From sequence record MN850581.1: 42,446 bases of DNA; one strand, 5' to 3'. Below the pieces are notes generated by a model. The model made no database searches. It was not told the origin of the DNA and saw nothing but the letters and a program-made list of their open reading frames with translations. Origin of the DNA: Escherichia phage sortkaff. Positions 3,626-41,955 of this stretch are shown piece after piece; position 1 is the first letter of the stretch; every line of letters begins with the position of its first letter. A program made the translations under genes and the position numbers.

Positions 3626-3859
3626 TCAGACGCCGTAACGGTCGGCAAGGAAAGAAAACCAGTTTTCAAGGCTGGCGCGTTGTTTGGCTGAAATGCCGTC
3701 GCCGTAGCGCTCCACCATTTCCGCAAACTTGCCTTTGATTGCTTTGAGGCGTTCAGCGTTCACGAAGTACGGGCCGAATGCGTCAAACGCGAAGCCGGAG
3801 CGGTCGCCCGCGCGGTTAAGAATGTCTTTGATTTGTGCAACGGTGAATTTATTAGCCAT
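3626..3859 (-). CDS. hypothetical small protein
   Basis: 77 aa from MANKFTV...; RBS GGAGAAA 5 nt upstream of the ATG. Confidence 0.65.
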   Translation of the reverse strand: MANKFTVAQIKDILNRAGDRSGFAFDAFGPYFVNAERLKAIKGKFAEMVERYGDGISAKQRASLENWFSFLADRYGV

Positions 3860-3966
3860 TTTCGTTTCTCCTCTGGGGGTCGGCGATGTTGCCGCCCTAT
3901 GTGATATAAGATAAACACTTTCGGGCGGCATGTCCAGAGAAATATCACGAAAAGATTAAATTATTT

Positions 3967-4155
3967 TCAGGCCAGATCGTCGTCCACTCTCCGGCCCAGC
4001 GCTGCCACGTCGTCCTCGGTTGCCGGACGGTAGCCATAACCAGGCCCCAGCTTGCGGGCGATGTGCTGCGCCTGCGCCTGGTTCAGCGTCACGGCGATCA
4101 GATTATTGGCCGCATCGACCACGCAGTGGGCTGCGTTTGCTGCTGCTATGTTCAT
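3967..4155 (-). CDS. hypothetical small protein
   Basis: 62 aa from MNIAAANA...; RBS GAGGTGAG; ATG overlaps the upstream stop (ATGA). Confidence 0.6.
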   Translation of the reverse strand: MNIAAANAAHCVVDAANNLIAVTLNQAQAQHIARKLGPGYGYRPATEDDVAALGRRVDDDLA

Positions 4156-4388
4156 CGTCTCACCTCGTCCGCCAGCTCCTGCTCCAGTTGGGAGACCTGC
4201 GCGCAAACGTCGTCGAAGTCCTCCATCTTGTCCAGCAAGCGGCGCGCAAGATGCCTCACGACCTCCTCGCAGTCGAGGCCGCCGATCGAGCTGGGCGGAT
4301 AACCTTCGCTTAACATGGTCAGCTCTGCGTCGTCCAGCTCCTGCTCGTCCAGGTGGCGGACTGGTCGGGCCAGTTCCAGCTTATTCAT
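4152..4388 (-). CDS. hypothetical small acidic protein
   Basis: 78 aa from MNKLELARP...; RBS GAAGGGAGG; start overlaps the upstream gene's end. Confidence 0.6.
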   Translation of the reverse strand: MNKLELARPVRHLDEQELDDAELTMLSEGYPPSSIGGLDCEEVVRHLARRLLDKMEDFDDVCAQVSQLEQELADEVRR

Positions 4389-13415: not shown

Positions 13416-14153
13416 CTAGCGGACGTTAGCGAGGAAGGTCGCGAGCGCGAAGCCCTCCGGGGTGGCGCTGCGTATGTTCTTTGTGCGGGTACTCGATCCG
13501 CCCAGCTTGGACCAGCCGGGATTATCTTTAGCCGCCGGGACTGGCTTCACCTCCGGCATAACGAAGCCGCCACCACACCAGATCCCGGTCTGCTTCGGAT
13601 AGGCATCGCGCGCCGGGTAGATCTCCGGGTATAGGCGGTGCTGGTGGTCGTCCGGCAAGTAGCCGCCGTAATGGTACGGGTGAAACCAGTAATCACAGGG
13701 CCGCCACATCGTCGAGAGCCGGGAGATCTTCGGATTCTCCAGCATCCACGGAACGGGCCGCGAATCGTCATAGCTGCCATTCTCATAGGCGGCGAAGTTC
13801 GCCACCTCCTCCACCATGCGAGCCAGCGCGACGGCCTTGTGTTGGAAGTACGGATCCCGCGCCCGTTTCAGCTCCCACCAGCGCGCCCCGGTGCAAGTAA
13901 GGTCGGTACACTCGGCAAACGAGGCGACAAACTCAATACCGGGGCCGACCTCCTCGACAATGGTCAGCGCCTCGATCTCGGTATGCTGCGCGTTAAACAT
14001 GCGCCCGACGCGGATAAGGTTCGGCTCCTGCGGGTCTGGGTGGATCCCGTCCTCGTGCTGGCCGTCATACATCCAGCATTGATAGCCAGCCCGGAGCCAC
14101 GGATCAACCATGATCCGCGTAAGGTTGAATAAGAATATCGCCTTACGCGTCAT
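13416..14153 (-). CDS. hypothetical protein, possible nucleic-acid-modifying enzyme (unassigned)
   Basis: 245 aa, aromatic-rich, with short motifs reminiscent of but not diagnostic for C5-methyltransferases (LENP, TPEGFALA). Translationally coupled to the upstream gene with a GAGG RBS. Confidence 0.7.
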   Translation of the reverse strand: MTRKAIFLFNLTRIMVDPWLRAGYQCWMYDGQHEDGIHPDPQEPNLIRVGRMFNAQHTEIEALTIVEEVGPGIEFVASFAECTDLTCTGARWWELKRARDPYFQHKAVALARMVEEVANFAAYENGSYDDSRPVPWMLENPKISRLSTMWRPCDYWFHPYHYGGYLPDDHQHRLYPEIYPARDAYPKQTGIWCGGGFVMPEVKPVPAAKDNPGWSKLGGSSTRTKNIRSATPEGFALATFLANVR

Positions 14154-14154
14154 G

Positions 14155-14739
14155 TTACGGCCTCGCTGGCATAATGATCATCGTGGACGGTCCGAAAGGC
14201 GTCTTAAACTCGACGCGCATCGGCATGTTATTACCCGCGAAGTGGAGATCAACAAACGGCATCTTAATCCCGAATTTTTTCCCCAGCTTTTCGACGAGGC
14301 CCAGATATTCCGCCATCACCTTAACGTCCGTCACGGCTTTGGAGTTGTTCTTCGCGCTCTCGATCACTGCGGTAAGGTTCGGATAATTGGCGTCCACGAC
14401 GTCAACCGTCCCGACGGCCAGGCGCTGGCGGCGGAAGTCGAAGCCCTCCAGGTCCTGCGGCTTGTCTGCCATCTGCGCGCACCAGTACACGATCCCGGCT
14501 TCGGTATCGATCACGGCGGTAGAGTAGGCGCGCCCGGTCGGCGGTGTGGAAACGTTCAGGATCAGGCCATCCGCCGGGGCCTCGGTCAGCGCGGAGCGGG
14601 TGGAGAGCGCTACGTGGCCGTTAGACGTCTGGATCTCGTCGCCTTTGAAGTGTAAAGCGTTCAGGTAATACCGCACATCCTGGCGGCCTTTGGTGAGCTG
14701 GTGAGCGCGGAGCGCGTCAACGGGTGCATAGATGATCAT
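14155..14739 (-). CDS. hypothetical protein
   Basis: 194 aa; RBS AAGGGGGA 8 nt upstream; sits between the Dam gene and the 245-aa gene in the same operon. Confidence 0.7.
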   Translation of the reverse strand: MIIYAPVDALRAHQLTKGRQDVRYYLNALHFKGDEIQTSNGHVALSTRSALTEAPADGLILNVSTPPTGRAYSTAVIDTEAGIVYWCAQMADKPQDLEGFDFRRQRLAVGTVDVVDANYPNLTAVIESAKNNSKAVTDVKVMAEYLGLVEKLGKKFGIKMPFVDLHFAGNNMPMRVEFKTPFGPSTMIIMPARP

Positions 14740-14752
14740 CTTTGAGTCCCCC

Positions 14753-15453
14753 TTAAATCAGGCTTTTGCCTGCGTACATCATTTCGGTAAGCGTTACGTA
14801 TTCCGTCTTGATCTCGCCGCGCTTGCGGGGCTTGATCAGGAATAAAACGGACGACTTCGCATTTTTGCCGCCAGGTTCCCCGGTCACGGCATCCACAAAC
14901 GCCACGCGCCCGGACGTCTCGCCGTCGCTGGTGATGTGGACAATGACGGACGCATGATCCAGCGCTTTCTTAAACCAGGCCGTAGAGGCGTCGGAGTTCA
15001 CGAGGAGGACCGTCGAGACGCCGCGCGTCTTTGCCTGCTCGATCGCTTTGGTCACAAACGGCATCGGCTCCGCGTATGGTGGGTTACACCACGCCAGCCC
15101 GTTCTCCGCGCCCCAGTTCACTTCGTCGCGGAGGGCGTTCGTCTCCTGTCCAGATAGCAGGCGCACAGGGCGTTAATCTTCTCGGCGGCCACGTCGATCC
15201 CAAACTCGCCGAAACGCTTACGCGCCCAGGCGAAAAGCCACTCCGGCGTCCGCCACTTCTGGCGCACTTTGTCCGGCGTCTTGCTGCCTTTGAAACGGCG
15301 ACCGCTCACGCGGTTCTCGTCGTCGGCCATGATCTCGTTAGTCGCTTTCTGGCCGATGGCCGCGAGCTGGGTCATAACGCCGGGGGCCACGCCATGCTCC
15401 GCGCCTGCCTGCTCCAGCATTTCGATCGTGCTCTTGTCGTTCTCGTATTTCAT
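14753..15453 (-). pseudogene. dam: phage Dam-type DNA N6-adenine methyltransferase (NPPY motif), interrupted by a frameshift
   Basis: N-terminal part (15118..15453, ...WRTPEWLFAWARKRFGEFGIDVAAEKINALCACYL) and C-terminal part (14753..15166, ...NWGAENGLAWCNPPYAEP...) lie in frames offset by one base. Frame switch must fall between plus 15121 and 15171; no slippery heptamer seen. Confidence 0.65.
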
Positions 15454-15483: not shown

Positions 15484-15512
15484 AACATAATGGAAGCGTG
15501 ATTTTATTTCAA
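15484..15512 (-). promoter_or_regulatory. sigma70-like promoter for the Dam operon (-35 TTGAAA, 17-bp spacer, -10 TATGTT) with ATCACGCTTCC in the spacer
   Basis: Minus-strand reading TTGAAA-taaaATCACGCTTCCat-TATGTT-aATTGCG; closely matches the promoter at 2220..2248; RBS AAAGGA before the Dam ATG. Confidence 0.45.
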
Positions 15513-15592: not shown

Positions 15593-15618
15593 GGCCCCTC
15601 GTGCGGGGCCTTTTTTTT
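15593..15618 (+). terminator. canonical rho-independent terminator oriented for plus-strand transcripts
   Basis: GGCCCC-tcgtgc-GGGGCC followed by T8. The T-tract overlaps the primase stop codon on the opposite strand; no plus-strand gene is evident upstream. Confidence 0.55.
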
Positions 15619-22138: not shown

Positions 22139-22139
22139 A

Positions 22140-22514
22140 TTGAGCGATATCGACGGCATCAAAACGATCGAGGCGATTGTGGACATTATCGCCCGCACTT
22201 TCCACGAGGCTAATCGCGCCTATTGCCAGGCACTGGGCGACGATAGTCAAAAGAGCTGGGACGAGGCCCCGGAGTGGCAGCGGGAGAGCGCCCGTAACGG
22301 CGTACTGTTCCACCTTAACGGCGATCACGGCCCGGAAGCCAGTCACGAGTCCTGGCTGGCTGAGAAGCGCGCACAGGGCTGGAAATATGGCCCGGTTAAG
22401 GATGCCGAAGCGAAAGAGCATCCTTGCTTTGTGCCTTATAGCGAGCTGCCGCCGGAGCAAAAAGCGAAAGATTACATTTTCCGCGCGATCGTCCACGCGC
22501 TCGGCAAAGCGTAA
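22140..22514 (+). CDS. hypothetical protein, RyR-domain-like
   Basis: 124 aa, apparent TTG start; motifs SHESWLAEKRAQGWKYGPVKD and HPCFVPYSELPPEQKAKD recalled as typical of phage RyR-domain proteins. Confidence 0.55.
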   Translation: MSDIDGIKTIEAIVDIIARTFHEANRAYCQALGDDSQKSWDEAPEWQRESARNGVLFHLNGDHGPEASHESWLAEKRAQGWKYGPVKDAEAKEHPCFVPYSELPPEQKAKDYIFRAIVHALGKA

Positions 22515-22538
22515 TTGTTAAATCGGTATCGAGAGAAA

Positions 22539-22565: not shown

Positions 22566-24929
22566 CTACGGCCCGGAGGTGATACGCGGGCGCGTTACGA
22601 TCTGCTTGTACATCCTGATCTGAGTCTCCGCCGGGACCGCCGTCTGGATAGGGTCGGCAATGTCCACAACGATCGGCTTGCCCGTATCGTCCGGCGGCGT
22701 CTGGTACGGAGGGCGGACGACCGTCGTAACGAGGTCAGCGCCACCAGCGCCAGCGCCGGGGATAACGATCCGCGTACCGGGGGACAGCATCGTGGTATAG
22801 AGCCACGGGGATCCGGTACTCGTGCCGTTAGGCGTCAGCCATTGGGTGATCGACTTCTGGCCGACACTGGCGGCGAGGATCTTCGCCTGGTTCCCGGTCG
22901 GGAAGTACGCGCCAGCCTCGACGACCAGATAAGGCTTAAGCCCTACGATCCCATTAGGACCGCCCGCCGGGTCGTTGCTGCCATAGTCATAAGTCCAGAC
23001 CAGATCGCCCCGGTCAAACTCGCGGCCACACGGGAAGAAATTACCGTACCCGCCGTGGGAGGTGATATCAGGGAAAAACTGCTTAGACACTCCCCCCAGC
23101 ATGGCCCCCAGAGAGCCGTCAATATTGACGTACATCCGGGCCTCGACGTTACAGTTAATCATGTTGATATTGCTGTAACGGCATTTGCTCCACGCCTGCG
23201 TTACCGGGTTCAGGCTGTTCACGTTCATCATGTTCAGCACGGACTTAGTACGAATGTACTGGCCGGAGGAGGTGGTCCCGCCTGCGGAGTCGTCGCCGAT
23301 CGCGTCCAGCTCCCAGAAATTCACGTTAAACATGTCGAGCTGAGTCGCCACGCCGAAGATCGTCAGCTTATAGCAGTCGATGTTTTCCAGCTTAACGCGG
23401 TTGTCGTGCGGCGCACGGTTGACGCCTGCGGTCGGGTCGCCGGGGTCGGCTGCTACCGGGCAGTAAACGCGGCCAGTTTTCGTCTTAACGTTGCGGATCG
23501 TGTAGTTGCGCGGCGCGGACTGGCGAGGCGGCCCCCATTCCATATGGATGATTCGCAGATCGTGGACGTCGGTCGTCGCGTTGCCGACGGGTTCCCCGGT
23601 CACGCCGTCGATCACGAAGTCTTTACAGCCAGACGTGTAGATCCCGGCGGTGGTGATACCAGTCCCCACGGACTTGTTAACGTCAGGGTTTACGCAAACA
23701 TTCTCGATCACGAAGTCGCGGCCCATTTCAACGTGAATACACTGTTTACACGCATTAACAAGGACGTTACGGATCGTGAAGTTGCGCGCGTAGTTTTCAT
23801 CAGGCAGATCCCAGCCGTAAGGGCCTTTGCCCGCCACGCCGATCCCCAGCCCCCAGTTAGACGCAAAGCTGCCGGGGTTAATCCCGTCGATGTTGTCGAG
23901 GAGGATATTTTCGATCACGCATCCATCCTGGAAACACTGGTGGACCACGTTAAGCTCGATCCCGTCGCCCTGCATGTTGACGAAAGCGAGGTTGCGGAAG
24001 ATGCCGCGCGACATAAACGCATTCCCGCCCTGGTGAATGATGCCGTTATAGCCGTTGGTAAACAGACAACCGTCGATCTCGATCGTTCCCCAGATCTGCG
24101 GGCCGCCGGATTGTACGCCCTGGATGTTGATATGGCTGTTATTGCTGCCGCCGGGGATCCCGTCGTACCAGCAATCGAACATCCTCACGTCGCCGCCGTC
24201 ATGGCGCATACGGTGGCCGTTACGGCCATTAACGCCGCGTAGGGTGGTATTCTGACACCACATCGAACGACCGCGCCACGTACCGCCGATAACCTCGCAA
24301 TTCACGAAGCGGGGATCGTTGCCAGTCAGCGTCCAGTCGCCGCCGAAAATGCGAATATTGGAGGCAGTCAGGATCCCGTTAGTGGTCCCTTTCCAGCCGT
24401 CCGCCCGGACGTCGAGGCCGTTCGCGCTGGCGTAGTCAAACATGGCCTGTAAAGCTGCCGTTACAGTTGCGTAAGGTGCTTTGCCGACGAAGTTCCACGG
24501 CGTCACATAGCCGTTTAGCTGCTCCTGCACATTGCCGACGGGCGTCCCGACGTACTTCGCCCCGTTCTGGGACAGAAGCAAATTCCACATCTGGACGGGA
24601 TCATATTTAAAGAGATTGGAAAAGGTGAAGATCACGACGTCGTTTTGGTCTGCGACGACCATAGACGACTCAATTTTGGTGATCAGCTTGACCACTTGAC
24701 CATTCCAGACCGGGAAGCCTGCGACGTTCGTCCGCACGGGTTGCGGGATAGGCGTCAGGGTCCCGTCCTCGTTCTCGACGTAGACCTGGACCTGGTTCGC
24801 CGGGTTAGTGGGATCCGTGTCAGCCTTTCCCGCGTAGATCTTCCCGTTCGCCAGCGCGGCGAAACGGTCGTTGCGAAAGAAAGGTTGCGACGGCATTCCC
24901 AGATTGGAAAAGACCTCAAGATCTGCCAT
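22566..24929 (-). CDS. tailspike protein with P22 gp9-type N-terminal head-binding domain and right-handed beta-helix-like receptor-binding domain
   Basis: 787 aa; N-terminal about 110 aa align with P22 tailspike recalled from memory (FAALANGKIYAGKADTDPTNPANQVQVYVENEDG ... NGQVVKLI versus [34 protein letters not shown] ... NGQLVKIV); the rest is divergent, Gly/Asn-rich and repetitive. Confidence 0.85.
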   Translation of the reverse strand: MADLEVFSNLGMPSQPFFRNDRFAALANGKIYAGKADTDPTNPANQVQVYVENEDGTLTPIPQPVRTNVAGFPVWNGQVVKLITKIESSMVVADQNDVVIFTFSNLFKYDPVQMWNLLLSQNGAKYVGTPVGNVQEQLNGYVTPWNFVGKAPYATVTAALQAMFDYASANGLDVRADGWKGTTNGILTASNIRIFGGDWTLTGNDPRFVNCEVIGGTWRGRSMWCQNTTLRGVNGRNGHRMRHDGGDVRMFDCWYDGIPGGSNNSHINIQGVQSGGPQIWGTIEIDGCLFTNGYNGIIHQGGNAFMSRGIFRNLAFVNMQGDGIELNVVHQCFQDGCVIENILLDNIDGINPGSFASNWGLGIGVAGKGPYGWDLPDENYARNFTIRNVLVNACKQCIHVEMGRDFVIENVCVNPDVNKSVGTGITTAGIYTSGCKDFVIDGVTGEPVGNATTDVHDLRIIHMEWGPPRQSAPRNYTIRNVKTKTGRVYCPVAADPGDPTAGVNRAPHDNRVKLENIDCYKLTIFGVATQLDMFNVNFWELDAIGDDSAGGTTSSGQYIRTKSVLNMMNVNSLNPVTQAWSKCRYSNINMINCNVEARMYVNIDGSLGAMLGGVSKQFFPDITSHGGYGNFFPCGREFDRGDLVWTYDYGSNDPAGGPNGIVGLKPYLVVEAGAYFPTGNQAKILAASVGQKSITQWLTPNGTSTGSPWLYTTMLSPGTRIVIPGAGAGGADLVTTVVRPPYQTPPDDTGKPIVVDIADPIQTAVPAETQIRMYKQIVTRPRITSGP

Positions 24930-39923: not shown

Positions 39924-41546
39924 TCAGTAGTTGCTCGGCACATTATAGCCGTGATAGTCGTCGTTTTTCACGCGCTCCGGCGGCTGCATCAACATGCAAA
40001 GCACGTCGGCCATGCCTGGCGATTTCATTTTGAGCTTGGTCCGCATCTGCGGCTTAGGCATACGGGCAAACTTGCCGTTGGTGTTGTATACGCGCGGAAT
40101 ACGGCAGACCTCGGCGCGTAACTTCTGCATATGCTCCCCGATCCCGGCCTTGTCCAGACTGATCAGCTCCTCCGGGTTGTGGTAGATGCCTTTCACGACG
40201 GCCTCGTAAGTCTTTTCGAAGCGACGGCGTAACAGGTAGATATCCTGGCTCCCCCTGTTCGCAAAAGCATCAACATTTTTCAGGAGGTTGTCGCCCTCGG
40301 TCTTGTTGTTGAGCCAGTGATCCAGCTCCACCAGCCCGTCCGGGTCTTTGACGCCCTCCCCGGCGTTGTAGCCGTCCACGATAACGTTAGTCCCGGCGTA
40401 AGCCTCCGTTACCTGGCGACGCAGGCCAGCGCCCAGCCCTGCCCGGTCCCACACAAAAGCCTCGACGCCGTGGATCTTCGCCTCGCCGATCGCCCGGTCT
40501 ACTGCGTCGTTAGCGTCGCCCTCGTACCACTCGGACATATGGGTGACGACTGGCCCCTGGCGCTCGCCATAGGCTTTGTTATCGGTCCCGACGTCCGCCG
40601 GGTCGAGTGCTGCGATCCTCATGCCGGACGGTTTAAAGCCTAAATGCAAATGAGCGTCGATCGCGGCATCAAACCATTCAGCCGGGATAATGGCATCCGG
40701 CACGGAGTCATTGAAATGACCTTCCCAGACGTGATCGAACAAGGCGCGGGAGAGGGTTTTCCGGTCAAACTCCATTTCTGCGCGGAGTTCGGGCGGAAAC
40801 CACGGGTTATCCGACCAGTTGACGCGGATAACCAGGTGGAGATCGTCCTCATAGATGCCGTCGCGGAGTAGATCCTCCCAGAATGGATTAATAAATCGCT
40901 TGCTGAATGGGTCCTCACTGGATCCGGGGTTGGCGGTGAATAGCATCATGCCGCCCTTTTCGCGCATGGTCGGCGTCAGCTTGCGGATCGACTCCTCGGA
41001 GAACGTTTGCGCCTCCTCGCCCCAGAATCGTTTGAAGCCGAAAGCGGATTTCACGCCGTCCGGGTCGCGGGCCATCCCCTTAAAACGGATGATCGCGCCG
41101 TTCTCGTGGCGGATCTCCTTCTCCAGAATTTCGAAGCCGTCCAGACCGTACTCCTCGATCCGGTTGGCGAGGAGCGGGTGGACAGAATCCTTGATCGACG
41201 CCTGAAACTCACGCAGACACATAGCGCTCGCGGCCTCGTCGTGGGCGTCTGCATCCACGATCCCGCCGACGGTGAGCGACTTCCCGGAGCCACGGCCCCC
41301 GACCAGGATAACGAAGCGTTTCGGGCGTAACAGGATGGGCGTCAGGCACTCGGCGATCGTAATGTCGTGCGGGTCGCTGGTGTAAACCCACTCGCCGTTA
41401 ACCTTGCGCATGTTGTACAGGTGGCGCGCCTGCAATCCATCCGGCGCATAGACGCCGTAAACCAGGCCGCCCTCGCGCGCCTTGTAGCGGAGCATGGCCT
41501 CCAGTCGGGCCAGTCGCTCGATCGCCTCCTTACGATTTTTTGCCAT
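39924..41546 (-). CDS. terL: terminase large subunit
   Basis: 540 aa; Walker A VILVGGRGSGKS; size and position directly upstream of portal. Confidence 0.85.
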   Translation of the reverse strand: MAKNRKEAIERLARLEAMLRYKAREGGLVYGVYAPDGLQARHLYNMRKVNGEWVYTSDPHDITIAECLTPILLRPKRFVILVGGRGSGKSLTVGGIVDADAHDEAASAMCLREFQASIKDSVHPLLANRIEEYGLDGFEILEKEIRHENGAIIRFKGMARDPDGVKSAFGFKRFWGEEAQTFSEESIRKLTPTMREKGGMMLFTANPGSSEDPFSKRFINPFWEDLLRDGIYEDDLHLVIRVNWSDNPWFPPELRAEMEFDRKTLSRALFDHVWEGHFNDSVPDAIIPAEWFDAAIDAHLHLGFKPSGMRIAALDPADVGTDNKAYGERQGPVVTHMSEWYEGDANDAVDRAIGEAKIHGVEAFVWDRAGLGAGLRRQVTEAYAGTNVIVDGYNAGEGVKDPDGLVELDHWLNNKTEGDNLLKNVDAFANRGSQDIYLLRRRFEKTYEAVVKGIYHNPEELISLDKAGIGEHMQKLRAEVCRIPRVYNTNGKFARMPKPQMRTKLKMKSPGMADVLCMLMQPPERVKNDDYHGYNVPSNY

Positions 41547-41955
41547 AGCCTAAGCCCTCGTAAGCCCGTTCAATCTGGGTAAACAGCGCGCCGACCAGAT
41601 ACGCCTCCGGCTCGTCGTTCTCCGGTCCCCAGGTGATATTAAAATCATCTGCGATAAAGTTTTTGATGTGGACGACCTCGTGGGCCACGACCGCGCGCCA
41701 GTGCTGGCTCCGCTTAATTTGCACGATCGCCACATAGGCGTCGTCGGTGACGTAGGCCGTCGCTCGGCCACTCTGGCAGGGCTTCGCCGGGTCGCGCCAG
41801 TTCTCCAGCGCCTGATCCATTACCTCCAGGTGCGCGTCGTTCTGCGGGTCGATACAGCAAACGAGATAGGGGTAAGGCGTCGCCAGAAACCACTCGATCC
41901 CCAGCTTGTCGAAGCGCCCGATCGTGTCAGGCGGTAACTTATTTTTTCTGCTCAT
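41530..41955 (-). CDS. HExxH-motif protein, possibly ImmA/IrrE-like zinc metallopeptidase
   Basis: 141 aa; RAVVAHEVVHIKNF fits the AHExxH signature of ImmA/IrrE-type peptidases; overlaps both neighbours. Confidence 0.55.
   Translation of the reverse strand: MSRKNKLPPDTIGRFDKLGIEWFLATPYPYLVCCIDPQNDAHLEVMDQALENWRDPAKPCQSGRATAYVTDDAYVAIVQIKRSQHWRAVVAHEVVHIKNFIADDFNITWGPENDEPEAYLVGALFTQIERAYEGLGYGKKS

Follow-up and report, generated by a model that had tools for sequence, protein, structure and literature searches.

The dam locus of Escherichia phage sortkaff (Sortsnevirus) is an ordinary one: the gene is an orthologue within a well-known family of orphan methyltransferases from phages and bears a private one-base deletion. 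The gene occupies positions 15453 to 14753 on the minus strand of the window (the complete stretch of 42,446 nucleotides that was analyzed) and is spread over two reading frames. On balance, the deletion is most likely a genuine and very recent loss-of-function mutation in the sequenced lysate.

Two reading frames of one methyltransferase gene

The whole Dam-type N6-adenine methyltransferase locus (14753-15453, minus strand) is a disrupted counterpart of an intact 233-amino-acid orthologue and was delimited by tblastn and by comparison with Pfam family PF05869 (Dam); it aligns to gp18 of Klebsiella phage vB_KpnS_IME279 at 98.1% DNA identity with a single gap. Its N-terminal open reading frame (ORF; 111 amino acids, 15118-15453, minus strand) begins at ATG 15453, encodes 102 native residues followed by nine out-of-frame residues (RRRTPSATK), and ends at TGA 15120-15118. 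An AAGGA Shine-Dalgarno sequence stands ahead of this ATG, and a candidate sigma-70-like promoter (TTGAAA-17-TATGTT, 15484-15512, minus strand; a match to consensus only) lies upstream of the gene. The C-terminal ORF (137 amino acids, 14753-15166, minus strand) runs from GTG 15166 to TAA 14755-14753 in the −1 frame relative to the N-terminal ORF; within it, homology to Dam residues 103 to 233 begins at about 15146 (131 codons, sharing ~98% identity with the closest relative). The W-x-T-P and D-V-A-A motifs are carried by the N-terminal ORF (15453-15118), while the catalytic motif IV NPPY (AAC CCA CCA TAC, 15074-15085, minus strand) is in the C-terminal frame. Both frames are open over 55 nt (15118-15172, minus strand), and a switch of frame is possible nowhere else.

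Both pieces matched PF05869 above its curated cutoff of 28.1 bits (N-terminal piece: 41.7 bits, profile positions 1-47; C-terminal piece: 102.7 bits, positions 48-167), and restoring one codon gave a repaired protein that matched across positions 1-167 of 169 (156.8 bits, E = 5.5e-46). The domain is thus broken at profile position 47/48 and does not lie in a single uninterrupted frame. The same division was evident when IME279 gp18 was used as a tblastn query, with residues 1-102 aligning in frame −3 and residues 103-233 in frame −2. Because the two pieces and the repaired protein all match PF05869, the split dam gene is confirmed far beyond chance. These results uphold the first-pass annotation, which had recognized a Dam-type N6-adenine methyltransferase with an NPPY motif, described its N- and C-terminal parts as offset by one base, and placed the feature at 15118-15174, with the switch between 15121 and 15171. 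The split is already in the public record, where QHZ59580.1 (“hypothetical protein sortkaff_32”) is the exact 137-amino-acid C-terminal product; the exact 111-amino-acid N-terminal product is absent from the recorded called genes.

A single G is missing from codon 103

Alignment to intact phage homologues, which had been proposed as a way of placing the indel, identified a single-base deletion on the minus strand between C15148 and A15147, within codon 103 (GAG in relatives). The lesion reads GAC[G]AGGAG on the minus strand and CCT[C]GTC on the plus strand, converting GAC GAG GAG to GAC-AGGAG. It is the one gap in the alignment with the orthologues from IME279, Kc237, and Sortsne, in which the relatives read CTG GAC GAG GAG ACG (or GAC GAA G..) and sortkaff reads CTGGAC-AGGAGACG; over the site as a whole, the deleted form is GACAGGAG and the intact form GACGAGGAG. 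The joined reading offered earlier (...CACYL / SGQETN) therefore needs correction, as the true junction lies two to three codons downstream, at ...CACYLD|(E)ETNALRDE.... Since the lost G stood between C and A, the deletion site is no homopolymer, and neither a homopolymer error nor transcriptional slippage is an apt description of the lesion.

Apart from the deletion, sortkaff Dam differs from that of IME279 by about nine synonymous and two nonsynonymous differences, and the downstream frame holds no further lesions, a pattern that would fit a very recent mutation or an artefact alike. The private substitutions are D3Y and P199A. They were considered as a sign of relaxed selection and set aside as too weak, other close relatives also having one or two private changes.

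The interruption is private to sortkaff among the relatives examined

Comparison of sequences indicates that the deletion is private to sortkaff and that the relatives examined carry an uninterrupted gene. The closest counterpart is IME279 gp18 (YP_009792808.1, DNA N-6-adenine methyltransferase), with 99% protein identity after repair. Orthologues in IME279, Kc237, Sortsne, Lumpael, IME_EC2, sortsyn, and sortregn have the same position in a shared arrangement (primase, then dam, the RusA-like gene, and the second methyltransferase) and are uninterrupted at 213 to 236 amino acids; relative to them, sortkaff lacks the one G in codon 103 and has D3Y and P199A. The Kc237 orthologue (QQV88608.1; Kosakonia phage Kc237, MW258710, 1550-2260) is labeled “DNA helicase” in GenBank, evidently a misannotation.

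Homologues of PF05869 are widespread in phages: a tblastn search of 50,697 phage records with the repaired protein matched 1,679 records, and all 60 of the best phage homologues among them were uninterrupted. In a large protein database, 33 clusters were recovered, all of them single Dam ORFs of 140 to 240 amino acids and none broken at the sortkaff site. Within the cluster formed at 90% identity (17 members), the 137-amino-acid sortkaff piece alone was truncated at the deletion site, and all 13 protein relatives at 91 to 99% identity were continuous across the junction. At the nucleotide level, nine of nine related loci, drawn from isolate genomes, IMG/VR, and independent ENA and Logan metagenome assemblies, retained the G, reading GACGAGGAG or GACGAAG(A/C). 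A pattern scan for either form returned two matches in IMG/VR, both to the intact 30-mer and neither to the deleted form, and no matches to either form in the JGI metagenome collection or the GTDB genome collection. The deletion was present in one record only, that of sortkaff. Because the genes of the relatives are intact, we attribute the split to a private mutation or to an error in the sequence, with no special coding mechanism involved.

Genomic setting

The sortkaff genome is ~97.5% identical to that of IME279 and circularly permuted relative to it. Mosaic replacements with respect to IME279 were seen at 41530-41955 (minus strand), 22139-22532, and 3634-4318. IME279 gp45, whose gene adjoins the large terminase gene, is unmatched in sortkaff, which has an unrelated 141-amino-acid ORF instead; gp27, gp41, gp51, gp56, and gp57 are also unmatched. 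A putative tailspike (“colanic acid degradation” protein, 22569-24929, minus strand) is 98.7% identical to that of the Klebsiella phage IME279, though the isolation host of sortkaff was E. coli K-12.

The two genes downstream of dam are intact. Thirteen nucleotides past the dam stop codon lies a 194-amino-acid gene (14155-14739, minus strand; PHROG 3007, “RusA-like”) with its own AGGGGGA ribosome-binding site. Its name varies between records, being “RusA-like Holliday junction resolvase” in RefSeq and PHROG 3007 and “putative beta sliding clamp” in KMB41 and IME_EC2, and its product has no Pfam match. The second methyltransferase gene (245 amino acids, 13416-14153, minus strand; PHROG 757, “DNA methyltransferase”) is in a single frame, with 98.4% identity to IME279 gp16; it matched no Pfam family, and its sortregn orthologue is annotated as a putative C5-cytosine methyltransferase. 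Between primase and dam, a strong hairpin is followed by a T-run (GGCCCCTCGTGCGGGGCC TTTTTTTT, 15593-15618, plus strand); its orientation as a terminator is that of the plus strand, whereas the genes on either side are encoded on the minus strand.

Predicted consequences for the protein

Residues that were invariant among 25 aligned homologues fell on both sides of the break, with T69, P70, D87, and A90 before it and L108, W114, C123-N-P-P-Y127, and several later residues after it. The AlphaFold2 model of the repaired Dam had a mean pLDDT of 80, rising to 86-95 in the core and 86-94 around residues 91 to 110, which include the break. In a Foldseek search with this model, the best PDB matches were all N6-adenine methyltransferases (CAPAM, CamA, M.TaqI, HsdM, and EcoDam), albeit weak (best E = 5e-4, TM = 0.45); a sequence search of the PDB with the repaired protein gave chance matches only (E ≥ 0.49). 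The modeled protein is thus predicted to adopt the class I (Rossmann-like) fold of N6-adenine methyltransferases, and, if its motifs follow the order usual in such enzymes, the N-terminal piece would supply those for cofactor binding, and the C-terminal piece would supply the catalytic NPPY together with the remainder.

Ribosomes starting at ATG 15453 would add nine aberrant residues to 102 native ones before stopping at TGA 15120-15118, yielding a truncated product that would be without the catalytic NPPY and everything downstream of it. Inspection of the sequence before GTG 15166 of the C-terminal ORF found no Shine-Dalgarno sequence at a useful distance. Because the domain is divided between two frames, any product as encoded would lack either the N-terminal or the catalytic half, and because the NPPY part is in the −1 frame without a good ribosome-binding site, the locus should give no active enzyme. 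As judged from its sequence, the sortkaff dam gene should be a very young pseudogene.

Mutation, sequence error, or a functional arrangement

Sortkaff was obtained from Danish wastewater on dam+ E. coli K-12 MG1655, prepared with Nextera XT, sequenced on an Illumina NextSeq, and assembled with CLC/SPAdes from merged overlapping reads (PMC7552041), with a coverage of ~52× from crude lysate 39B, which held two phages (PMC7552041, supplementary table). The genome is given as 42,538 bp in the source paper and 42,446 bp in the record, and a trimmed terminal overlap might explain the difference of 92 bp. In the preprint, sortkaff is named as one of the phages that encode both dam and dcm (bioRxiv 10.1101/2020.01.19.911818). 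As the authors list sortkaff as dam-encoding, they did not regard the gene as broken, and the frameshift evidently went unnoticed.

Across the 39.6 kb aligned to IME279, in which frame-breaking indels were scored by grouping neighboring gaps and taking their net length, the dam deletion stood alone as a net frame-breaking indel within conserved coding sequence, and among the ~55 IME279 proteins matched in sortkaff, Dam alone mapped to two frames. Each remaining gap either belonged to a compensated substitution cluster, had a length divisible by three, fell in an intergenic T-run or at an end of the alignment, or lay where the gp29 gene diverges at its 3′ end, and a generally indel-ridden assembly was rejected as an explanation. 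With sortregn and Lumpael, compared as a control on the pipeline of the same laboratory, no coding frame-breaks were found in 37.7 kb. Because this sole frame-breaking indel in conserved coding sequence sits in an Illumina assembly of ~52×, a genuine mutation is favored over an assembly error. The competing explanation, possible but clearly the less probable of these two, is that the phage truly has GACGAGGAG and an intact 233-amino-acid Dam, a base having dropped out when reads were merged, assembled de novo, or called to consensus. Such a loss would fit the confinement of the deletion to a single record among intact relatives, the moderate depth from a crude two-phage lysate assembled after merging of overlapping reads, and the listing of sortkaff as dam-encoding by its authors. 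It would also fit the fully intact downstream frame (~98% identical to IME279, with no second lesion), since a perfectly preserved frame is equally expected from an artefact. Illumina consensus indels at nonrepetitive sites are rare, however, and the site is neither a homopolymer nor a repeat; the absence of any other frame-breaking indel in the conserved coding sequence of sortkaff, or of any in the sister genome from the same pipeline, likewise speaks against an error. Two biological considerations weigh on the other side: the retention of Dam throughout a GATC-rich clade suggests that it is useful, and the ~365 nt of mRNA left untranslated ahead of two intact genes could cause polarity and be somewhat costly. 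The earlier verdict of mutation or sequence error, with recoding unlikely, thus stands, given that slippery site, RNA structure, and shared split are all lacking; its suggestion of a homopolymer error falls, as no homopolymer is present at the site, and the lost anti-restriction function that it put forward is a possible consequence of such a mutation.

Programmed recoding, in which a −1 ribosomal frameshift or transcriptional slippage within 15172-15118 would restore some full-length Dam, is suggested by the direction of the required shift (−1) and by the 55-nt overlap. Moreover, the zero frame enters three consecutive arginine codons (AGG AGA CGA) beside an AGGAG Shine-Dalgarno-like sequence; these codons are rare in enterobacteria, and rare codons together with AGGAG could pause ribosomes. 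Both features, though, are by-products of the deletion in a stretch coding for Glu-Glu-Thr-Asn. Within 15172-15118 there is neither an X XXY YYZ heptamer nor a run of five or more identical bases, in agreement with the earlier statement that a slippery XXXYYYZ site is missing; the gene has just one such heptamer (TTTGGGA at 15204), and it is located upstream of the overlap. Given the sequence, tRNAs that slipped by −1 from CUG or GAC could not pair again. The predicted RNA fold of 15175-15050 is no more stable than that of shuffled sequence (minimum free energy of −43 kcal/mol versus a shuffle mean of −43.4; z-score 0.11), leaving no stimulatory structure, and the two-frame arrangement recurs in none of the 60 best phage matches, nine related loci, or 13 close proteins. 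With an overlap that has neither a slippery heptamer nor an unusual RNA structure, programmed frameshifting and transcriptional slippage are effectively excluded. Scarcely more credible is a functional split enzyme, in which the N-terminal fragment and a C-terminal fragment started at GTG 15166 would associate into an active methyltransferase. Natural and engineered split DNA methyltransferases exist (e.g., M.AquI and M.EcoHK31I), and here both frames are open over the overlap, a GTG heads the second ORF, and each fragment keeps conserved motifs. Against this, no Shine-Dalgarno sequence is usefully spaced from GTG 15166, and the break interrupts one compact domain within its confidently modeled core. 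The arrangement is also absent from the relatives examined, and for that reason it is unlikely to have been shaped by selection. A genuine mutation accordingly remains our preferred reading.

GATC content and tolerance of the loss

GATC occurs at 464 sites in sortkaff, 3.0 times the expectation from base composition and 1.44 times that from a second-order Markov model, and is the most overrepresented 4-nt palindrome; the excess extends across the clade (3.0 to 3.6 times in IME279, sortregn, and Lumpael). Such enrichment is compatible with GATC being the target of the sortkaff-type Dam. Characterized members of PF05869 target GATC, and among the members of PF05869/TIGR01712 the Dam proteins of phage T1, Stx-phage 933W/VT2, and HP1 are reported to be GATC specific. 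CTAG, by comparison with its own expectation, is almost absent from sortkaff (4 sites, 0.11 times). Sites for EcoKI, which E. coli K-12 carries, are absent as well (AACN6GTGC / GCACN6GTT: 0 in 42.4 kb), where about five would be expected by a rough estimate for a random site of seven specified bases on both strands.

If the target is GATC, loss of the phage Dam would be masked by the host enzyme, because MG1655 is dam+. The loss would probably have been tolerated during enrichment on this host, whose Dam may cover GATC methylation, and the second, cytosine-type phage methyltransferase of sortkaff is still intact. We infer that the deletion is biological and not an artefact, and that the loss would be neutral on MG1655. 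On a further and unlikely reading, the deletion is real and was also selected: a phage whose closest relative infects Klebsiella was enriched on MG1655, where its own Dam would have been either superfluous beside the host enzyme or harmful, perhaps through generating sites for a methylation-dependent restriction enzyme such as Mrr. Were such selected loss true, sortkaff would be a natural dam-null in an unusually GATC-rich clade and could be used to test the role of phage Dam.

Implications and comparison with known systems

The practical value lies chiefly in annotation: the C-terminal piece is described as a “hypothetical protein” in the public record, whereas the paper treats the phage as dam positive, and a better label for the locus would be a frameshifted dam pseudogene or a probable sequence error. 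Should the deletion prove genuine, sortkaff and the IME279-like phages would form a near-isogenic natural pair (~98% identical) differing in Dam, which could show what the phage enzyme contributes in a clade with about one GATC per 90 bp. Neither the corrected annotation nor the natural pair alters current understanding.

In having two overlapping frames offset by −1, the locus resembles genes with programmed −1 frameshifting, such as dnaX and the phage tail-chaperone genes G/GT, but sortkaff differs from these in lacking a slippery heptamer, a stimulatory structure, and a conserved arrangement. It also recalls the phase-variable methyltransferase genes of phasevarions, in which a methyltransferase is turned off by a frame shift through slippage in simple-sequence repeats; the sortkaff site, in contrast, lies in unique sequence (GAC[G]AGGAG), without a repeat or homopolymer tract (no run of at least five bases in the overlap) or sign of reversible switching. 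A further likeness is to the “phage N-6-adenine-methyltransferase” family itself (PF05869/TIGR01712), to which the sortkaff protein corresponds in its full-length domain match after repair, its NPPY motif, and its N6-adenine methyltransferase-like AlphaFold2 model, and from which it differs in that its domain is split over two frames.
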